A stretch of DNA of 63,270 nucleotides, filler included, from Collodictyon triciliatum (lineage: Eukaryota), in NCBI GenBank assembly GCA_043381765.1. It is 34 parts of 34 records of this genome, joined end to end, with 100 filler letters (N's around TTAATTAATTAA, not from the genome) between each part and the next. Parts side by side here need not be neighbours in the genome. Positions count along the whole stretch, not along the records: positions 50,037 to 54,374 come from JBHJMP010010448.1; 33 more parts are not named here. One strand, written 5' to 3'. Below, piece after piece: positions 43,198-59,397 of the stretch; position 1 is the first letter of the stretch, and the number at the start of each line of letters is the position of its first letter. The position numbers and the translations under genes are program-made. The notes beneath the pieces are model-generated. The model was not told the origin of the DNA. It did no database searches and saw only the letters and a program-made list of their open reading frames with translations.

Positions 43198-44695
43198 CAT
43201 TTGAATCGAAAAAAGAAAAAAGGCGCAATTCGATTCCAACCGAATAAAACCTAATGTAATACACTCAAAAAGTCTGTGGAGATTGAAGGTTTCCTATCGG
43301 GATATCCAAACTAGCTTTGAAAACTGATTTTTCTTTGTCGGCGGGACGGCATGCACATATATCAATATGGTACTTGCGAAGAAAGCAGGTGAATGACTGC
43401 TGGTTGTGACATATACATGCCAATAAAATTCAACTGCATCGTTTTTGAGTTCCAAAATATCAAAAAAAAGAAAAGAAGAAAGAAAAGAAGCAGAGGTGTC
43501 GACACGCTTTGGTTTCGAGTATAAACATTCTAAAGGTAGGCATTTGATACGAAAATCGACTTGTAGCCACTATATCATCCCATTCAATTTTTCAACAATC
43601 ATTAAACATATTTCGTGACATTCAATTCATNNNNNNNNNNNNNNNNNNNNNNNNNNNNNNNNNNNNNNNNNNNNNNNNNNNNNNNNNNNNNNNNNNNNNN
43701 NNNNNNNNNNNNNNNNNNNNNNNNNNNNNNNNNNNNNNNNNNNNNNNNNNNNNNNNNNNNNNNNNNNNNNNNNNNNNNNNNNNNNNNNNNNNNNNNNNNN
43801 NNNNNNNNNNNNNNNNNNNNNNNNNNNNNNNNNNNNNNNNNNNNNNNNNNNNNNNNNNNNNNNNNNNNNNNNNNNNNNNNNNNNNNNNNNNNNNNNNNNN
43901 NNNNNNNNNNNNNNNNNNNNNNNNNNNNNNNNNNNNNNNNNNNNNNNNNNNNNNNNNNNNNNNNNNNNNNNNNNNNNNNNNNNNNNNNNNNNNNNNNNNN
44001 NNNNNNNNNNNNNNNNNNNNNNNNNNNNNNNNNNNNNNNNNNNNNNNNTTTGTTGCTTACTGTGACAAACAAGTAGAGTTATTGAAGACCAATGAGAGCA
44101 TGAAAACATACATGCTCCTTTTTTACTTATAAATTGATGACTGCACATTATAGACCTGCCACTTAAGTCGTATAGTTAAAACTAATATATTACGATAAGT
44201 AGACAAATGTAGACCAAGATATTAAAAACTTGAACTTGAGTATCACTCAAACATCGATTTCAGCTGCTTATTATCCTCACATTTATTATATACACAAACA
44301 CTTTTGGGAGAAACAAGAAAACCCCTGAGATTTAGTTAAAATTGCATCTCCTACCAATTTTTGTCCTCTTTTCCTTCTTTTTTTTTTTTTAAAGTCAATC
44401 TTAAATTTAATTTATCAGTTAAGATACGAAAAGTCATGGCGATATTAAGAGGATTTTGATGCTTCTCCGTGAGACCATTCCCAGCAGAATCATACACATT
44501 CTTTTTTTTTTCATTTTCATTTTCATTTTCATTTTCATTTTCATTTTCATTTTCATTTTCATTTTCATTTTCATTTTCATTTTCATTTTCATTTTNNNNN
44601 NNNNNNNNNNNNNNNNNNNNNNNNNNNNNNNNNNNNNNNTTAATTAATTAANNNNNNNNNNNNNNNNNNNNNNNNNNNNNNNNNNNNNNNNNNNN

Positions 44696-51138: not shown

Positions 51139-51702
51139 CTAGCGATGGCTTACATTAATCATATTTGATGAATTCGCATGAAAGTACTTTGATTCGATCC
51201 CTTCCAATTCTTGGATGATACCAGAGCCTAATGGGGCTTTAGGAGACTCAATCTCATTTGAATGCAAGTGGTCGTTTATGAATTGAAATGCAAACGAGAG
51301 TTCTTGTTTAGAGATTGAGTGGGTCGCATGGACATCAGGCTGGTCAAGCTTGGATATTGTGCTTCCATCAAGCTTCAGAGCAATCACTTTCCCAAGCAAT
51401 CTTTTTGACAATTCGTCTTTCTTTTTCTCCAAATGAGTCACCAGCGCCATATGACTCAACTCCATCACTTTCTTCTTCGGAGCTTGGGAATTGCTACCAG
51501 TGCCTTCCTGCTTTGACAAATCAATAAAGGCTGAAATGTCATCTGGCGATATATGATACATCTCAACCATCGTCTTTTCAATCAGTTTGTCTTGAATTTG
51601 TTGGAAACTTTCCCAGCTTTGATTTGAAATTATATCGCTTAGTTTAAAAAAGCCATGCTCTCGAAGCCACTCCACAAATTCACCCTGGTACATATCAGCC
51701 AA
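51139..51702 (-). CDS. Eukaryote-type ORF/exon with two possible SAM-like helical domains
   Basis: 187-aa open frame. EFVEWLREHGF and LKLDGSTISKL weakly resemble SAM motifs. Confidence 0.35.
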   Translation of the reverse strand: MADMYQGEFVEWLREHGFFKLSDIISNQSWESFQQIQDKLIEKTMVEMYHISPDDISAFIDLSKQEGTGSNSQAPKKKVMELSHMALVTHLEKKKDELSKRLLGKVIALKLDGSTISKLDQPDVHATHSISKQELSFAFQFINDHLHSNEIESPKAPLGSGIIQELEGIESKYFHANSSNMINVSHR

Positions 51703-51726: not shown

Positions 51727-51980
51727 CAGGAGTTTCGCACTTGAGGAAAAAATGTTAGATTAGAAAAAAAATATTTTCAGTAAGGAATGGCAAGATCGAA
51801 GTGCAGTAAGAATTTGTACAAATCATTTTTGCAAGCAAGTAGCGTGAGATATAGCGGCAAAGCGCTATCGGAAGTAAGTCCCGTCGCTCTGTCCCATGAT
51901 AGTGCAAGTCGTTGGTTAAATAGTCAGAATTTCCGTCCTGGCGAGATTTATAAAGAGGTATCGAAATATATTGATCAGGA
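51727..51980 (+). mobile_element. Truncated inverted copy of the IS701 left end (254 bp)
   Basis: Reverse-complement match to 52782-53035; starts exactly with the IR CAGGAGTTTCGCACTT. Confidence 0.92.
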
Positions 51981-53035
51981 CAGGAGTTTCGCACTTAGCA
52001 AAATTGCATATCGGCTAATAGCCATCTGATATTGCATTGGATAGCTGTTTTTATAACGTCCCAAGTTTGTTGATATAAAGTAATTTTTTCATTTATCCTC
52101 CTTTTGTTCATTTCAAGCCAAGCAAATACGGCAAGGCAAATATGGTTTCGTTGAGCCCGACCCGTGCGTGCCTGACAGCGTTCAATACCACAAGTTTGCT
52201 TTAATTCTCGATGATAAACTTCTATAGACCAACGTGCTTCAACAATTTTCTCTATTTGCTCACGTGTTGGATTTGACATGTTAGTTGTTATGTAATCAAC
52301 GCGGCCATTTTTTGCCACAAACTTAAATACCGTAACCCATCCGTATCCACGTAGGTGAATTCTTAGCCCCTCATCGGGAATCTCCAAACTTTCCAAGCTA
52401 ACATTACGATTAACCTTCCTATTCTTCCTTAGGTTGGTAACCCATATCCAACCTAAATCACGTATATGTTTCAAATTCTCTAAGCTGCTATACCAAGCAT
52501 CCATTACTACAGCCTCAGGATTGATACCCCTTTCCTTAGCCAAACTAAGCATATCACAAAAATGATCATTCTTTGTTTTTCCGTCGGTTTCTTTATCATA
52601 AACCCTATAATCTACAGGGATAGATTGGTCAGTCTTTCTATCATAATGCAGCAGGTTTACCATTCCTATACCGGGAATAACATCATGTTCGGCTCCAGAA
52701 TATTGATAATGCACAAGTTCGATCTTTTTGCTATATTGCTTTGATATCAAAGTATCATCACCTACTAACAGGCAAGGAGAATCCTGATCAATATATTTCG
52801 ATACCTCTTTATAAATCTCGCCAGGACGGAAATTCTGACTATTTAACCAACGACTTGCACTATCATGGGACAGAGCGACGGGACTTACTTCCGATAGCGC
52901 TTTGCCGCTATATCTCACGCTACTTGCTTGCAAAAATGATTTGTACAAATTCTTACTGCACTTCGATCTTGCCATTCCTTACTGAAAATATTTTTTTTCT
53001 AATCTAACATTTTTTCCTCAAGTGCGAAACTCCTG
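51981..53035 (-). mobile_element. Complete IS701-family insertion sequence, 1055 bp, 16-bp perfect terminal inverted repeats
   Basis: IRs CAGGAGTTTCGCACTT at 51981-51996 and 53020-53035. The left flank reads ATAG on the element strand, fitting the nTAG target preference of IS701. Confidence 0.93.
51995..52975 (-). CDS. tnp: IS701-family DDE transposase, 326 aa, intact
   Basis: LVGDDT, IPVDYRVYDK..DGKTKNDHF, VVMDAWYSS, RWSIEVYHRELKQTCGIERCQAR...AQRNHI; Shine-Dalgarno-like AAGGA before the ATG. Confidence 0.93.
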   Translation of the reverse strand: MARSKCSKNLYKSFLQASSVRYSGKALSEVSPVALSHDSASRWLNSQNFRPGEIYKEVSKYIDQDSPCLLVGDDTLISKQYSKKIELVHYQYSGAEHDVIPGIGMVNLLHYDRKTDQSIPVDYRVYDKETDGKTKNDHFCDMLSLAKERGINPEAVVMDAWYSSLENLKHIRDLGWIWVTNLRKNRKVNRNVSLESLEIPDEGLRIHLRGYGWVTVFKFVAKNGRVDYITTNMSNPTREQIEKIVEARWSIEVYHRELKQTCGIERCQARTGRAQRNHICLAVFAWLEMNKRRINEKITLYQQTWDVIKTAIQCNIRWLLADMQFC

Positions 53036-53531
53036 CTATATATTCAATATTATTATTTTCTTTATATATATAGAGAAGGTCGTTTTGTTGAGCAGAAAAT
53101 TGCTCGATAGAATGCTCCAAGTAACCTATATTTTCTAGCTTTGTAAGTTTATAAGAAAACTCATAACTAAACCGATATTTTTTGCCATTATAAGTAATAG
53201 AATTATGGTAAGTAATATCTAGGACAGATTCTAACTGTTTTATGATATTTTGATTTTGTCTTCTTTTGCATAAGGTAATTGAGGAGATATATTTGTGATT
53301 AAAGAATACACGTTTGCCTCTTTTTAAACCCTGTATCACTGGGGCGAGAATAGCTTGTGCATCTTTGCTTAAATATTTTGCTTTTTGGCGAATAGCTTTA
53401 TTGTTAGCTCTTTTGATTTTATCCCAATCAATATAACTTTTACGATAACGGGCTTTCTCTTCCTTAAATGAATAGAGTTTGTATAGCTGTGTTTGAACTG
53501 TGTATTCTTCAGAGTATTGTAATAATGTCAT
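53036..53531 (-). pseudogene. 5' part of a Rickettsiales-type DnaA-like (DnaA_N-containing) replication protein, interrupted by IS701
   Basis: KLYSFKEEKARYRKSYIDWDKIKRAN...FNHKYISSIT.C.RRQN.NII.QL..+LDITYHNSIT..GKKYR recalls Rickettsiaceae plasmid/mobile rep-like proteins (from memory, not searched). The last 10 aa of the listed ORF come from the IS end. Confidence 0.65.
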
Positions 53532-53533
53532 TA

Positions 53534-53570
53534 TTTTCTAATATTTAAAATTGTTTTAAATTTTAGAAAA
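53534..53570 (-). promoter_or_regulatory. 17-bp stem-loop immediately upstream of the rep-like start codon
   Basis: TTTTCTAA-T-ATTTAAAA-TTG-TTTTAAAT-T-TTAGAAAA, ending 2 nt before the ATG. Confidence 0.7.
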
Positions 53571-53576
53571 AGTGCC

Positions 53577-53605
53577 TTGACGAAGAGACAATATACCACT
53601 ATACT
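53577..53605 (+). promoter_or_regulatory. Sigma70 promoter, antisense to the rep-like leader
   Basis: TTGACG-N17-TATACT. Confidence 0.75.
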
Positions 53606-53611
53606 CCAGTT

Positions 53612-53665
53612 GTTATACAAGGAGTTTGGGTGCTTTCTCTCGTGGGGTGGCACTCTTTCTTTTTT
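53612..53665 (+). ncRNA. Putative ~55-nt counter-transcribed antisense RNA (ctRNA) with intrinsic terminator
   Basis: Follows the promoter and ends in the hairpin GGGTGCTTTCTC-TCGT-GGGGTGGCACTC plus TTTCTTTTTT. The stem depends on G-U pairs that form only on the + strand. Confidence 0.55.
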
Positions 53666-53841
53666 ATCGCTATTGTTTCTGATGTTTAATTCTTATTTTC
53701 TACAAATTCTCTCCGTGACCTCCTAATTTTTACTTACATAACAAACAAGAATATTAACTATTTTAGTAAAAGCAAGATTTTTATTGAATTTTTATTAAAA
53801 ATGCTATACACAAACTAAAGTTTTTTATATAATGAATTATT

Positions 53842-54135
53842 ATGAATAGAATAGAAATGATAAAAGAAGCAATAAGTGATAGTGGGTTATATTCCAATAA
53901 CCAATGTAAAATAGTGAATGTATTGCTCGATATTGCTATTAACAACGTAGCACAAGCAACTGTTAGGTTTCTTGAAGAAAAAACTGGAGTAAAAAAACCT
54001 ACGATTTATTTTGCTTTAAAAATTTTTCAAAAAGATGGATTAATAATAAAAAATGAACAGCTAGGAGGTTTTGAAATTCAACAACCTAAACTAAATTATT
54101 TTTTAGAATCTTATCAAAAAAAGCAATCTGTATAA
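53842..54135 (+). CDS. Small winged-HTH protein, 97 aa (bacterial)
   Basis: ATVRFLEEKTGVKKPTIYFALKIFQKDGLI has an HTH pattern; divergent from the rep-like gene. Confidence 0.7.
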   Translation: MNRIEMIKEAISDSGLYSNNQCKIVNVLLDIAINNVAQATVRFLEEKTGVKKPTIYFALKIFQKDGLIIKNEQLGGFEIQQPKLNYFLESYQKKQSV

Positions 54136-54176
54136 TTTTTTATAATTATTTTTCAATAATTTTATAATAAAAATAT

Positions 54177-54205
54177 TTGACAATTTTATTTTTCCCCTCT
54201 ATACT
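54177..54205 (+). promoter_or_regulatory. Sigma70 promoter for a downstream gene (RBS GAGGAGG, ATG 54347, MQNISTLPL..., truncated)
   Basis: TTGACA-N17-TATACT. Confidence 0.8.
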
Positions 54206-54221
54206 CACCTTATAAGGTATA

Positions 54222-54258
54222 AAAAAAACGCCTTAAGTTTGCAGCTTAAGACGTTTTA
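54222..54258. terminator. Hairpin/terminator-like element in the leader, with the longer U-tract on the minus strand
   Basis: AAAAAAACGCCTTAAG-TTTGCAG-CTTAAGACGTTTT. Confidence 0.55.
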
Positions 54259-54474
54259 ATAACCTTAAATAGTTGTAAGAATTTAACAGTTTTCGAGACC
54301 TAATTATTCTTACTTAATATCAATATAAATCCCATGAGGAGGATATATGCAAAATATCTCAACCCTACCTTTACNNNNNNNNNNNNNNNNNNNNNNNNNN
54401 NNNNNNNNNNNNNNNNNNTTAATTAATTAANNNNNNNNNNNNNNNNNNNNNNNNNNNNNNNNNNNNNNNNNNNN

Positions 54475-55983: not shown

Positions 55984-56253
55984 GTATGCCCCAAATACAC
56001 GTTGTTATTTTAAATTTTCTCCTGTCGTATCTCTACTTTCTTTTCTTTTTTTCTTTTTTCTATTCTTTTCTATTCTTTTCTATTCTTTTCTATTCTTTTC
56101 TATTCTTTTCTATTCTTTTCTATTCTTTTCTATTCTTTTCTATTCTTTTCTATTNNNNNNNNNNNNNNNNNNNNNNNNNNNNNNNNNNNNNNNNNNNNTT
56201 AATTAATTAANNNNNNNNNNNNNNNNNNNNNNNNNNNNNNNNNNNNNNNNNNN

Positions 56254-57934
56254 NAGACTGAGACTGAGACTGAGACTGAGACTGAGACTGAGACTGAGAC
56301 TGAGACTGAGACTGAGACTGAGACTGAGACTGAGATTGGGATTGGGATTGAGATTGGGACTTAGTACGAGATTCGTTTGGTGATTGTGATTGTGATGATG
56401 ATTGGGATTGTGATTGGAATTGAGATTGAGATTGAGATTGAGATTGAGATTGGGACTGAGACTGAGACTGAGATTGGGATTGTGATTGGAATTGAGATTG
56501 AGATTGAGATTGGGACTGAAATTGGTACTGAAATTGGGATTGGGATTGGGATTGGGACTGAGACTGAGACTGAGATTGGGATTGTGATTGGAATTGAGAT
56601 TGAGATTGGGACTGAAATTGGTACTGAAATTGGGATTGGGATTGGGATTGGGATTGAGATTGAGATTGAGATTGAGATTGGGATTGAGATTGTGATGATG
56701 ATTGTGATTGTGATTGTGATTGTGATTGAGACTGGGATTGGGATTGAGATTGGGATTGAGATTGAGATTGAGATTGGGATTGAGATTGGGATTGGGATTG
56801 AGTACGAGATTCATTTGGTGATTGAGATTGAGATTGAGATTGAGATTGGGATTGAGATTGTGATTGTGGTTGAGATTGGGACTTAGTATGATATTCATTT
56901 GGTGATTGAGATTTAGATTGAGATTGAGATTGAGAATGAGAATGAGAATGAGATTGAGATTGAGATTTAGATTGAGATTTAGATTGAGATTGAGACTGAG
57001 ACTGAGATTGAGAATGGGACTGAGATTGAGATTGGGATAGGGATAGGGATAGGGATTGAGACTGAGACTGAGACTGAGACTGAGACTGAGACTGAGACTG
57101 AGACTGAGAGTGAGACTGAGACTGAGACTGAGATTGGGATTGGGATTGGGATTGGGATTGAGATTGGGACTTCGTACGAGATTCATTTGGTGATTGTGAT
57201 TGAGGTTGAGATTGGGATTGGGATAGAGACTGTGATTGAGATTGAGATTGAGATTGAGATTGAGATTGAGATTGAGATTGAGATTGGGATTGAGATTGTG
57301 ATTGAGATTGTGATTGAAATTGGGAAAGAGATTGAGATTGGGATTGGGATTGAGATTGGGATTGAGATTGGGATTGAGATTGGGATTGTGATTGAGATTG
57401 TGATTTATTAGGAGATTGTGATTGTGATTGTGATTGGAATTGAGATTGAGATTGTGATTTATTAGGAGATTGTGATTGTGGTTGGGATTGGGATTGAGAT
57501 AGGGATTGAGTATGAGACTGAGATTGAGATTGGGATTGAGATTGGGATTGAGATTGAGATTGAGATTGTGATTCATTTGGTGATTGTGATTGTGATGATG
57601 ATTGTGATGATGATTGTGATTGTGATTGGGATTGAGATTGAGACTGAGATTGCGATTGCGATTGAGATTGGGACTTAGTATGAGATTCATTCGGGGACTG
57701 AGATTGGGATTGAGATTGGGACTTAGTATGAGATTGAGATTGGGATTGGGATTGGGACTTAGTGTGAGATTCATTTGGTGATTGTGATTGGGAAAAAGAT
57801 TGAGATTGAGATTGGGATTGGGATTGAGATTGAGATTGAGATTGAGATTGAGATTGAGATTGAGATTGAGATTGAGATTGAGACTGAGACTGAGACTGAG
57901 ACTGAGACTGAGACTGAGACTGAGACTGAGACTG
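56254..57934 (-). CDS. (Gln-Ser)n low-complexity coding exon, ~560 aa, open at both ends
   Basis: Hexamer variants are synonymous only in the CAA/CAG-TCT/TCC/TCA frame. Recurring SPNESHTKS/SPNKS motifs; no stop found in the variant blocks checked. Confidence 0.65.
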
Positions 57935-59397
57935 NNNNNNNNNNNNNNNNNNNNNNNNNNNNNNNNNNNNNNNNNNNNTTAATTAATTAANNNNNNNNNN
58001 NNNNNNNNNNNNNNNNNNNNNNNNNNNNNNNNNNACAAAATACAAAAAAACAAAAAAAACAAAAAAACAAAAAAAAACAAAAAAAAACAAAAAAAACAAA
58101 AAAACAAAAACAAAAAAAAAAGTAGAATACGTACAACTAGTTGAAGGCTATAGATGCATGTAATTGCATTCTTGTTTGCATGGTGGATGATATCAGCAGC
58201 CCCGGTTGTATGATAGTATTGTGTGAAACGTAACTTCTGGTTCAACAAGAGAGTCGCATCCACCACGACCTTGATGTCAATTACTCTTATTTTTAATAAG
58301 TCAATACAGAACATGAACGGCTAATCTTGCTACAATATAAAAGGAAAACAAGCAAAAGAGGAATGTCTAAGCAAAGTTTCGTTCGCCAACAACGGACTAT
58401 ATACCTACTGTTTGTCCTGATGATTACAGACATTTTCATACACACCTTTCTGGAGCCACCGTATGGAACGCTTATCGACAACCTCGTCGCATTCATGTAA
58501 ATCACATATCAAATTCCCGAGAAGGGTCCCTTGACTATGTATCTACTCCCATGCCTTCTACCAAAACCATTTTCTGGGACATTTATATTTGAATATGGCT
58601 GAATCAGTTCGTTTATGCTCTTCCATTTTTATTATTGCATCCTAGGGTGCACATGTTCGTGATGGTCACACAGCTGATTGTGCTTTATGTGGCTTTCTCA
58701 GAGACAATCTACATAAAAAATCGAGTATATTCGGAACTCTTTATTGAGTTCCGATCGATTCTTTTGCTTTATCCTCTTTACTTCGTGTCACTGGTCGTAC
58801 TCAAAGTTGTTCGCATGGTCATACTTAGTTGCCTTTTATAAGAAATCTAATTACACTGCCCATTATAAACTCTCTTTGAGATTTTTTAATATAGAAAAAA
58901 AACCTTTAAACATATTCTCATTTGAGTTTTATTTACTTACCTTCGAGATATTTACAATATTAATATGCATATTTATGTATAAATTATCTTCTTCCACCAT
59001 TTCGGTGATAAATAGGTGTGCATATATGTTTTATCCTACCCCGAGCCTTTATTATGGAATACTGCAGTATATTCAGTCCTATTTTACCTTCACTATATCG
59101 GTAATACAAAAATGGCTCCATACTTTTCTAATTTTAGAATACTATCATTGAACTAGCCATAAATTCGATATTAGTTGTCCTGCTATATGAATACTCTCTG
59201 TATTCCACGATAATGGAGCTCTACAAAACAAAGCACTATGATTTTGCTCGAAAAAGCCAGAAAGTACACGTAGTGGTCGAATCTTGAATACATATTTTTT
59301 TTAAAAAATGTATAAATCATCGACTAGATATGATCTTCTTGATGGTAGGGATTCGATTTTAGAGATTGAGTTGCTCACAAGATCAATTACAATGAAG

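Follow-up and report, generated by a model that had tools for sequence, protein, structure and literature searches.

A 63,270-nucleotide (nt) stretch of DNA from Collodictyon triciliatum (GenBank assembly GCA_043381765.1), hereafter the window, carries at positions 53529-53775 the leader of a plasmid rep-type gene which we read, with a probability of roughly 60%, as a countertranscript (antisense RNA) control module of a Candidatus Megaera plasmid. Judging from comparison and folding, this reading is well supported for the group of leaders to which the window belongs and plausible for the whole family. The piece of the window concerned spans 51727-54374, directly after a gap of 10 Ns; within it, 53036-54374 is the only stretch that matches a known record, being 99.3% identical to CP113869.1, plasmid 'unnamed2' of Candidatus Megaera polyxenophila strain NDG2, a member of the Rickettsiaceae that lives as a symbiont of ciliates and algae. 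What the analysis establishes directly are the sequence elements, their conservation, the strand specificity of their pairing and the fact that rep genes exchange the module. The elements of the leader are as follows:

53748-53775, minus strand: probable rep promoter (-35 TTGCTT 53775-53770, 16-nt spacer, -10 TATTCT 53753-53748)
53532-53741, minus strand: rep mRNA leader of about 210 nt, its start expected near 53741 and its 5′ end placed from the promoter
53577-53605, plus strand: antisense promoter (TTGACG 53577-53582, 17-nt spacer, TATACT 53600-53605)
53612-53665, plus strand: predicted countertranscript of about 54 nt, with a single-stranded 5′ tail, a hairpin and a U-tract (53656-53665), both ends being predictions
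53603-53625, minus strand: hairpin H1 (ACUCC / GGAGU in plus-strand letters)
53649-53660, minus strand: strand X of the long-range helix, AGAAAGAGUGCC, within the antisense target
53565-53576, minus strand: strand Z, GGCACUUUUUCU, with X or, via UUUUCU, the AGAAAA ahead of the ATG as alternative partners
53534-53570, minus strand: translation-start hairpin (17-nt arms 53534-53550 and 53554-53570, 94% complementary), 2 nt from the ATG at 53531
53037-53531, minus strand: first 165 codons of the rep-type gene (ATG 53531-53529), including a winged-helix domain

An initial annotation of the window, made from the sequence, had proposed both promoters, the 17-base-pair hairpin next to the ATG and an 11-base-pair mRNA helix (53659-53649 with 53576-53566), and all of these lie where it placed them. 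Taken alone, the elements in the window are only mildly above chance: a consensus scan of 53000-54374 gave 14 promoter-like sites where 8.4 +/- 2.7 would be expected. It is the comparison with relatives that makes them real. For this comparison, metagenome contigs were scanned with an alignment of the N-terminal domain of the Rep-type protein, which yielded 80 loci, mostly from fresh water, and, once the start codon nearest the expected place had been chosen, 65 distinct leaders of 150 nt. By their antisense -35 and -10 hexamers the leaders split into three groups:

Group A: TTGACG / TATACT, 17 leaders, window included
Group B: TTGACT / TATTCT, 28 leaders
Group C: TTGACA or TTGACG / TATTCT, 17 leaders, promoter 52-60 nt from the ATG

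The antisense promoter of the window matches the consensus at 10 of 12 positions in a promoter scan, and its conservation upstream of homologs, which the initial annotation had suggested examining, is complete: the pattern TTGACN-N17-TANNNT (TAYNCT at the -10) lies opposite to rep in 65 of 65 distinct leaders, always with a spacer of 17 nt. The -35 begins 41-60 nt from the rep ATG (46 nt in 30 leaders) and reads TTGACT in 35, TTGACG in 20, TTGACA in nine and TTGACC in one, and the -10 is TATTCT in 38, TATACT in 19, TATCCT in six and TACTCT in two. Over both strands of all 80 loci, the same pattern occurs 199 times in 586,604 nt, that is, 0.34 times per kb. TTGAC and TA..CT do not vary across the aligned leaders, unlike the spacer; invariant hexamer bases around a free spacer of 17 nt are the signature of a sigma-70 promoter. 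The promoter is retained down to about 30% protein identity. Among Megaera plasmids it was found on pPCS109 and p2_M_poly_crypto and before the open reading frame (ORF) for a paralog of the Rep N-terminal domain on pPCS148, with weaker versions on two NDG2 plasmids; by locus, it is kept in L008, L011, L009 and L014 and is weaker in L006 and L003. The probable rep promoter on the opposite strand, with 8 of 12 consensus matches, falls under the threshold of the promoter scan and is therefore not listed by it; nevertheless, the TTG of its -35 and the TAT..T of its -10 are kept in 16 of the 17 group A leaders.

Downstream of the antisense promoter, GGGUGCU (53628-53634) pairs with GGCACUC (53649-53655) to form the hairpin of the predicted countertranscript. 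The same arrangement recurs throughout group A, where a stem about 20 nt beyond the expected antisense start is followed by UCUUUCUUUUUU. Folding of 53612-53670 gives -18.1 kcal/mol for the plus strand (z -3.0; 3 of 200 shuffles as good) and -3.0 kcal/mol for the minus strand. Across the seven pairs of the terminator stem in the 17 group A leaders, 92.4% of cells are paired on the plus strand versus 66.4% on the opposite strand, a difference that arises because two of the pairs are G.U in 14 and 15 of the 17. Likewise, in all 17 the antisense body folds more stably than its complement (-13.2 versus -4.5 kcal/mol). A simple terminator scan flagged no plus-strand terminator at the predicted antisense RNA; the 14-nt loop of the hairpin contains an inner stem. 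An Rfam cmscan of 53300-54000 with E up to 10 returned just two chance microRNA rows (E ~6). The hairpin and U-tract claimed earlier as the end of an RNA of about 55 nt, with G-U pairs that form on the plus strand only, are thus present in every group A leader; this putative terminator is weak in group B and absent in group C.

On the antisense side, group B leaders have, by eye and in single-sequence folds, a homologous A/U-rich stem with changing base pairs. In L022, L040, L083, L046, L057, L091, L070, L078, L088 and L011, a second small hairpin with changing arms lies about 60 nt past H1, and its loop, GUUCAGA or GUUCGGA, repeats the H1 loop of the same sequence.

H1 adjoins the antisense -10 in all groups: the arm that is 5′ in antisense orientation overlaps that hexamer, and the loop holds the predicted antisense start. 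Since an antisense RNA starting 5-9 nt after the -10 would leave out this arm, both arms would be present only in the rep mRNA. Among 46 leaders, 98.3% of H1 cells are paired and three of eight pairs change on both sides; one pair of columns reads CG in 16, GC in 16, AU in 12 and UA in two. Counted together, H1 and the hairpin of the start region have 61 cells changed on both sides, compared with 25.2 in shuffles, and none of 500 shuffles reaches 61. Among the non-Watson-Crick cells of H1, about eight (roughly six lineages) form G.U on the mRNA strand only versus one or two on the antisense strand only. The predicted 5′ tail of the antisense RNA has its complement in the loop and 5′ arm of H1. 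Positions 53610-53621 and 53733-53744 form a 12-nt inverted repeat (83%), so that the predicted start of the rep mRNA resembles that of the antisense RNA; the 5′ end of the mRNA could therefore likewise pair with the H1 loop.

The long-range helix joins the antisense target to the start region. Its arms in the window read GGCACTCTTTC (53649-53659) and GAAAAAGTGCC (53566-53576), with the helix on the minus strand, and the minimum-energy fold of the whole 225-nt leader includes it as 12 X-Z pairs, one arm lying in the target and the other overlapping the start hairpin. A helix of at least 12 pairs with at most one G.U appears in 5 of 300 dinucleotide shuffles of the window leader. In the 17 group A sequences, 99.5% of 204 cells are paired, and five pairs vary on one side only, staying G.U or A-U on the mRNA strand. 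Group B differs in register: the strand adjacent to the -35 pairs with a neighbouring segment of the target, and in the register shared by groups A and B four pairs differ on both sides between the two groups (for example, AU in 29 and GC in 13). In group C the equivalent strand is complementary to the H1 region (fold of L044). Hence, in all groups, the strand just downstream (in the mRNA sense) of the antisense -35 complements part of the antisense target, and it doubles as the 5′ arm of the hairpin over the ribosome site.

That hairpin, with -8.8 kcal/mol in the window (z -4.5; 0 of 200 shuffles), is kept among relatives: in 46 leaders, 89.6% of the cells of its homolog are paired, and the pair over the Shine-Dalgarno G is CG in 29, UA in 11 and UG in six. 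When the 58-nt antisense target was forced to be single-stranded in 61 leaders, which are related sequences and not independent trials, the mean unpaired probability at -14 to -5 dropped from 0.32 to 0.12; the ribosome site became less accessible in 50 leaders and more accessible in one, with all three groups behaving alike. An equal 58-nt block placed further upstream gave 0.36 (lower in 15, higher in 28). No U-run follows the start hairpin, and control of translation is therefore likelier than attenuation. Near the 5′ end of the leader the window has a further feature:

53701-53725, minus strand: Shine-Dalgarno-like AGGAGG and GGAG, followed by a UUG UAG start-stop

In 36 of 63 leaders, a count made without a chance control, a comparable Shine-Dalgarno-like site with a mini-ORF of 1-4 codons (ATG TAA, ATG AAA TAA or TTG TAG) is found 120-260 nt ahead of the ATG.

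The module is not inherited strictly with the gene that it precedes. From about 45 nt into the gene, the rep coding sequence of the window is 90-95% identical at the DNA level to those of L021, a group C locus, and of L022 and L024, both of group B; conversely, in L065 the leader and the neighbouring winged-helix gene are identical to those of the window and the Rep protein is just 58% identical. Mapped onto a tree of 51 Rep proteins, the three groups of leaders require 16 changes, with a minimum of 2 and a mean of 18.1 after shuffling, and the well-supported branches of the tree alone force eight (group B), six (group C) and four (group A) changes. The control region is thus swapped between near-identical rep genes. 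Such exchange of a cassette between like initiators would be expected if the cassette decides incompatibility. The winged-helix gene lies upstream of the leader and is divergent from rep:

53842-54135, plus strand: divergent winged-helix gene (97 amino acids, aa), with a promoter-like site of its own at 53805-53833

It matches the Pfam family RepL (PF05732; E-value 6.5e-6, 26.2 bits with a cut-off of 20.3) over profile positions 43-109 of 164, a partial coverage which indicates a shared DNA-binding domain and not a full RepL. A divergent homolog was found in 61 of the 63 loci with at least 700 nt of upstream sequence, mostly starting 230-430 nt from the rep ATG. Of 54 distinct loci, 39 have a promoter-like site no more than 120 nt from the start of this gene, as does the window. 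The encoded protein is likely to be a second regulator of rep, acting on transcription.

From these elements we propose the following mechanism, in which the production of the antisense RNA, its ends, its binding and the lowering of translation are what we infer. The rep mRNA would begin near 53741 with a leader of about 210 nt, inside which the opposing, strong sigma-70-type promoter at 53577-53605 would yield an untranslated RNA of about 54 nt. In the absence of this RNA, the purine-rich strand X (53660-53649) would pair with Z (53576-53565), and the weak ribosome site would stay open. The antisense RNA, complementary throughout to the region bearing X, would probably first touch the H1 loop through its 5′ tail; its binding would free Z, which would then close the 17-pair hairpin over the ribosome site, so that less Rep is made. 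As every plasmid copy would make the antisense RNA, copy number could be set in this way.

Several observations weigh against this proposal. The gene in the window is cut by an insertion sequence (IS), and the DnaA_N domain is absent from most relatives (339-363 aa long in 47 of the 65 complete ORFs). The canonical terminator is present in group A only. In group B, the antisense body is the more stable strand in just 19 of 28 leaders, no U-tract follows, and the consensus fold shows no hairpin downstream of the antisense start; in group C, there is no strand bias (antisense body more stable in 7 of 17) and the terminator is absent, so that in both groups the antisense RNA could extend as far as the winged-helix gene. 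Placing H1 on the mRNA strand depends on few events, and the plain folding energies of H1 do not favour the sense strand. Within group A, no pair of the X-Z helix is changed on both sides, and by eye some group B sequences have C.A or A.A mismatches in the helix. Because Z adjoins the antisense -35, its conservation could also reflect an A-rich upstream promoter element. The ribosome site is A-rich and weak. Finally, four metatranscriptome runs give unstranded contigs only (53318-53719, 53387-53612 and 53485-53618), for which carry-over of DNA is possible. The first of these is compatible with a long rep leader, although the contigs, which cover parts of 53036-54374, show neither strand nor ends; as to their termini at 53612, 53618 and 53719, a variable leader would break assembly graphs anyway. 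The antisense-RNA switch put forward in the initial annotation is thus favoured by the comparison, the strand-specific pairing and the in silico block of the target, and it is weakened by the weak terminator of group B, the missing one of group C and the scarcity of compensatory changes within groups.

The backward-facing promoter might instead be a distal promoter of the winged-helix gene, whose long 5′ untranslated region would overlap the rep leader and influence rep through transcription collision or overlapping mRNAs, with no discrete short RNA. This would agree with the presence of the divergent gene at nearly all loci, 61 of 63, usually within the 230-430 nt mentioned above, and with the lack of a canonical terminator between promoter and gene in groups B and C. 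Nevertheless, we consider it unlikely, given that all 17 group A leaders have a strong hairpin and U-tract about 55 nt past the promoter and that the winged-helix gene has a promoter-like site close by in 39 of 54 loci and in the window (53805-53833). Moreover, L074 and L075 have the winged-helix gene at a distance of 863 nt, with the promoter still 46 nt from the rep ATG; the position of the promoter is therefore tied to rep and not to the winged-helix gene.

The hexamers and inverted repeats could also be sites on DNA (operators, iterons or origin elements) bound by the winged-helix protein or by Rep, with no regulatory RNA involved. Both neighbouring genes encode winged-helix domains, and H1 is a DNA palindrome overlapping a promoter; palindromes give paired changes as well, and the folding energies of H1 do not separate the strands. 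However, invariant TTGAC, an exact but free 17-nt spacer and TA..CT make up a sigma-70 signature; the inner arms of H1 vary freely while its loop is better kept, which is the reverse of what a dimer operator would show; and the G.U pairs of the terminator stem (in 14-15 of 17 leaders) would be A.C mismatches as DNA or on the opposite strand. We therefore find protein-binding sites an improbable explanation of the leader. Least credible is that the plus-strand RNA encodes a small hydrophobic peptide, from GGAG at 53621-53624 and a GTG at 53630 followed by 19 open codons. By eye, the frame is open in several group A leaders, but it traverses the U-tract as well as the terminator, and stop codons are scarce on this strand simply because of its pyrimidine-rich composition. 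Moreover, the GGAG is missing from groups B and C, and the observed changes track base-pairing and not codon positions. We therefore reject the peptide.

With respect to the controlled gene, codons 1-165 encode a sequence with 100% identity to residues 1-165 of WPX99731.1, a hypothetical protein of 356 aa from the NDG2 plasmid CP113869.1. The ORF in the window extends over 53004-53531, its final 10 codons deriving from an IS701 element, and has no match in Pfam or NCBIfam; DnaA_N (PF11638) was found by Pfam neither in this ORF nor in the 356-aa full form. A 528-aa relative on plasmid pPCS148, to whose residues 17-324 the 356-aa form is 70% identical, does end in DnaA_N (8.2e-12). A tblastn search with the 528-aa protein retrieved 42 plasmid records, 31 of them in Rickettsia, with annotated DnaA_N proteins; the matches in the 31 Rickettsia records span residues ~194-526. 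Among the 65 complete relatives in metagenomes, 47 have 339-363 aa and seven have 512-536 aa, and DnaA_N occurs only in the longer class. As the domain is missing from the 339-363-aa relatives, an initiator role for them is presumed from their kinship. CP113869.1 has no second homolog of the rep-type gene, and its first 50 kb have no other annotated initiator. In the AlphaFold model of a close full-length relative, the mean predicted local distance difference test (pLDDT) score is 51; residues ~55-130 reach 80-86 and match generic winged-helix folds with Z of 6-9 (VIA search), and the remainder is below 50. Foldseek found no match for the model in PDB at E <= 0.001, and its weak rows likewise indicate just a generic winged helix. 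For Rickettsia, parA, a dnaA-like gene and the intervening sequence are described in PMC3244465 as sufficient for replication. The label 'rep-type gene' is thus reasonable, and 'DnaA-like' fits the family only, not the copy in the window. The description of the gene in the initial annotation as a rickettsial DnaA-like rep gene stands insofar as the 528-aa relative connects it by homology to plasmid initiators with DnaA_N; the window ORF, which keeps only 165 codons before IS701, and the 356-aa form have no such domain. On pPCS148, the 528-aa rep gene is separated from the conserved leader by an extra ORF of 153 aa (L002 2499-2960, twice in the record), which is distantly paralogous to the N-terminal domain of Rep.

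By mechanism, the nearest known systems are the countertranscripts of repABC replicons and RNAI of pSK41. In the repABC plasmids treated in PMC3155836 (p42d of Rhizobium etli and Ti plasmids), a short countertranscript arises in the initiator leader; without it, a large fold of the mRNA frees the Shine-Dalgarno sequence and start codon, and pairing induces an inhibitory fold. The initial annotation had invoked repABC replicons as its precedent, with a short countertranscript and a downstream stem-loop controlling repC. Both cases share a countertranscript inside the initiator leader whose pairing switches the fold, which here is a prediction. They differ in that the repABC RNA lies between repB and repC in an operon and the inhibitory fold is an intrinsic terminator, whereas the Megaera gene stands alone with a divergent regulator and its inhibitory hairpin has no U-tract; in addition, the repABC initiator proteins are unrelated to the Megaera rep-type protein. 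RNAI of the staphylococcal RepA_N plasmid pSK41, as summarized in PMC5703833, pairs with the leader some 100 nt ahead of the start region; the stem-loop that forms as a result masks the ribosome site, and transcription is not attenuated. The logic is the same as that of the switch proposed here, whose target lies 81-139 nt upstream; however, RNAI is about 83 nt long with two stem-loops and acts in a Gram-positive host, and there is no sequence relation. A competing 'mimic' strand, Z, beside the antisense -35 is a feature of the Megaera leaders.

The pairing of a winged-helix protein with a countertranscript recalls pIP501 (CopR and RNAIII) and pMV158 (CopG and RNAII), for both of which PMC5703833 describes a small DNA-binding repressor alongside a countertranscript. 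In pMV158, pairing is reported there to begin at the single-stranded 5′ tail of the 48-nt RNA, and a tail-to-loop arrangement of this type is predicted at H1. In the two known plasmids, the repressor gene is upstream and in the same direction, whereas it is divergent in Megaera; pIP501 acts by attenuation, and RNAII of pMV158 acts beside the ribosome site. Our literature search, which did not extend to supplementary files, found no antisense or countertranscript copy-number control described for Rickettsiales, Megaira plasmid or Rickettsia DnaA-like replicons, in agreement with the statement of the initial annotation that none was known for Rickettsiales DnaA-like replicons. Accordingly, the kind of control is familiar from other plasmids, and what is new is probably its occurrence in a bacterial group where none has been described.

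The plasmids of Rickettsia with DnaA-like and ParA proteins (pRAM18, pRAM32, pRF and pRM) are related through the C-terminal half of the long relatives (tblastn 1e-9 to 1e-16 for 23 of the 31 records and 3e-11 to 1e-5 for the other eight). They differ in having genes of 650-820 aa beside parA, and the Megaera N-terminal winged-helix domain has no tblastn match in Rickettsia plasmids. The final ~56 nt before the ATG of the DnaA_N gene are 85-96% conserved in 20 Rickettsia records. Leaders L104 and L106-L111, covering the final 60-170 nt before the ATG, are from pMCE_2/pRAM18-like, pRF, pRAM23, pMCC_1, pRA1, pRAM32 and pRiCimp001 plasmids. A hairpin of five pairs lies over an AAGGAG site in seven of the eight Rickettsia leaders fetched. 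TTGAC[TC] occurs on the opposite strand in six of the eight; its distance from the ATG is 37 nt in five of them and 24 nt in pMCC_1, a leader with a deletion, and four of those have a usable -10. Further upstream, a stem was seen by eye whose pairing, with G.U, works only for the antisense strand.

Rickettsia plasmid leaders may be controlled in a similar way. More broadly, and only tentatively, countertranscript control with a swappable cassette that comprises the leader, the first ~15 codons and the winged-helix gene could be the general system of copy number and incompatibility in Rickettsiaceae DnaA-like replicons, also in those Rickettsia plasmids that serve as shuttle vectors. The cassette would rely on a built-in mimic, that is, a strand next to the antisense promoter which resembles part of the antisense RNA and competes for the same segment of the leader; the part mimicked would be the 3′ arm in group A, the 5′ arm and loop in group B and the 5′ end in group C. 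In Megaera and Rickettsia, strains have several plasmids whose initiators are related. If our reading is true, the coexistence of such plasmids would be explained by a conserved antisense module that moves between near-identical rep genes, and this module would be a defined element to weigh when these replication regions serve as genetic tools. For RNA biology, the leaders would constitute a new, well-sampled family with more than 60 distinct members in three groups, in which the target, the competing strand and the ribosome-site hairpin can be compared.

The remainder of the piece is occupied by the element that truncates the rep-type gene:

51727-53035, minus strand: IS701-family element

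Its transposase ORF is 51995-52975 (NCBIfam NF049921, 3.5e-110), and the match to plasmid CP113869.1 ends at 53036, exactly where the element begins (53035/53036). The element is flanked by an inverted repeat of 254 nt with 100% identity (51727-51980 versus 52782-53035), which begins right after the 10-N gap and finishes at the rep junction. The copy of rep in the window could be broken by a real IS701 insertion, or the junction could be a fold-back of the assembly. A separate ORF at 51139-51702, considered as the missing half of rep, was rejected as such.

In its first 50 kb, CP113869.1 contains phage-like genes (tail fibre, terminase, RecT, YqaJ-like nuclease and methylases) together with ParA and toxin-antitoxin genes. 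The YqaJ/RecT genes adjoin the winged-helix/rep pair on this plasmid, likewise on pPCS148 and pPCS109. CP113869.1 may be a phage-plasmid.

Elsewhere, the window contains units of 44 Ns, 12 bases and 44 Ns about every 1.79 kb and a single run of 418 Ns at 43631-44048. The GC content shifts between its pieces from 0.26 to 0.47, as in joined short pieces rather than one replicon. On the minus strand, 56203-57774 is an open frame of 523 codons composed of Asn/Leu/Pro/His/Ser simple repeats, with a GC skew of 0.72 in 56001-58000; it looks like low-complexity, eukaryote-like sequence, unrelated to the antisense module.

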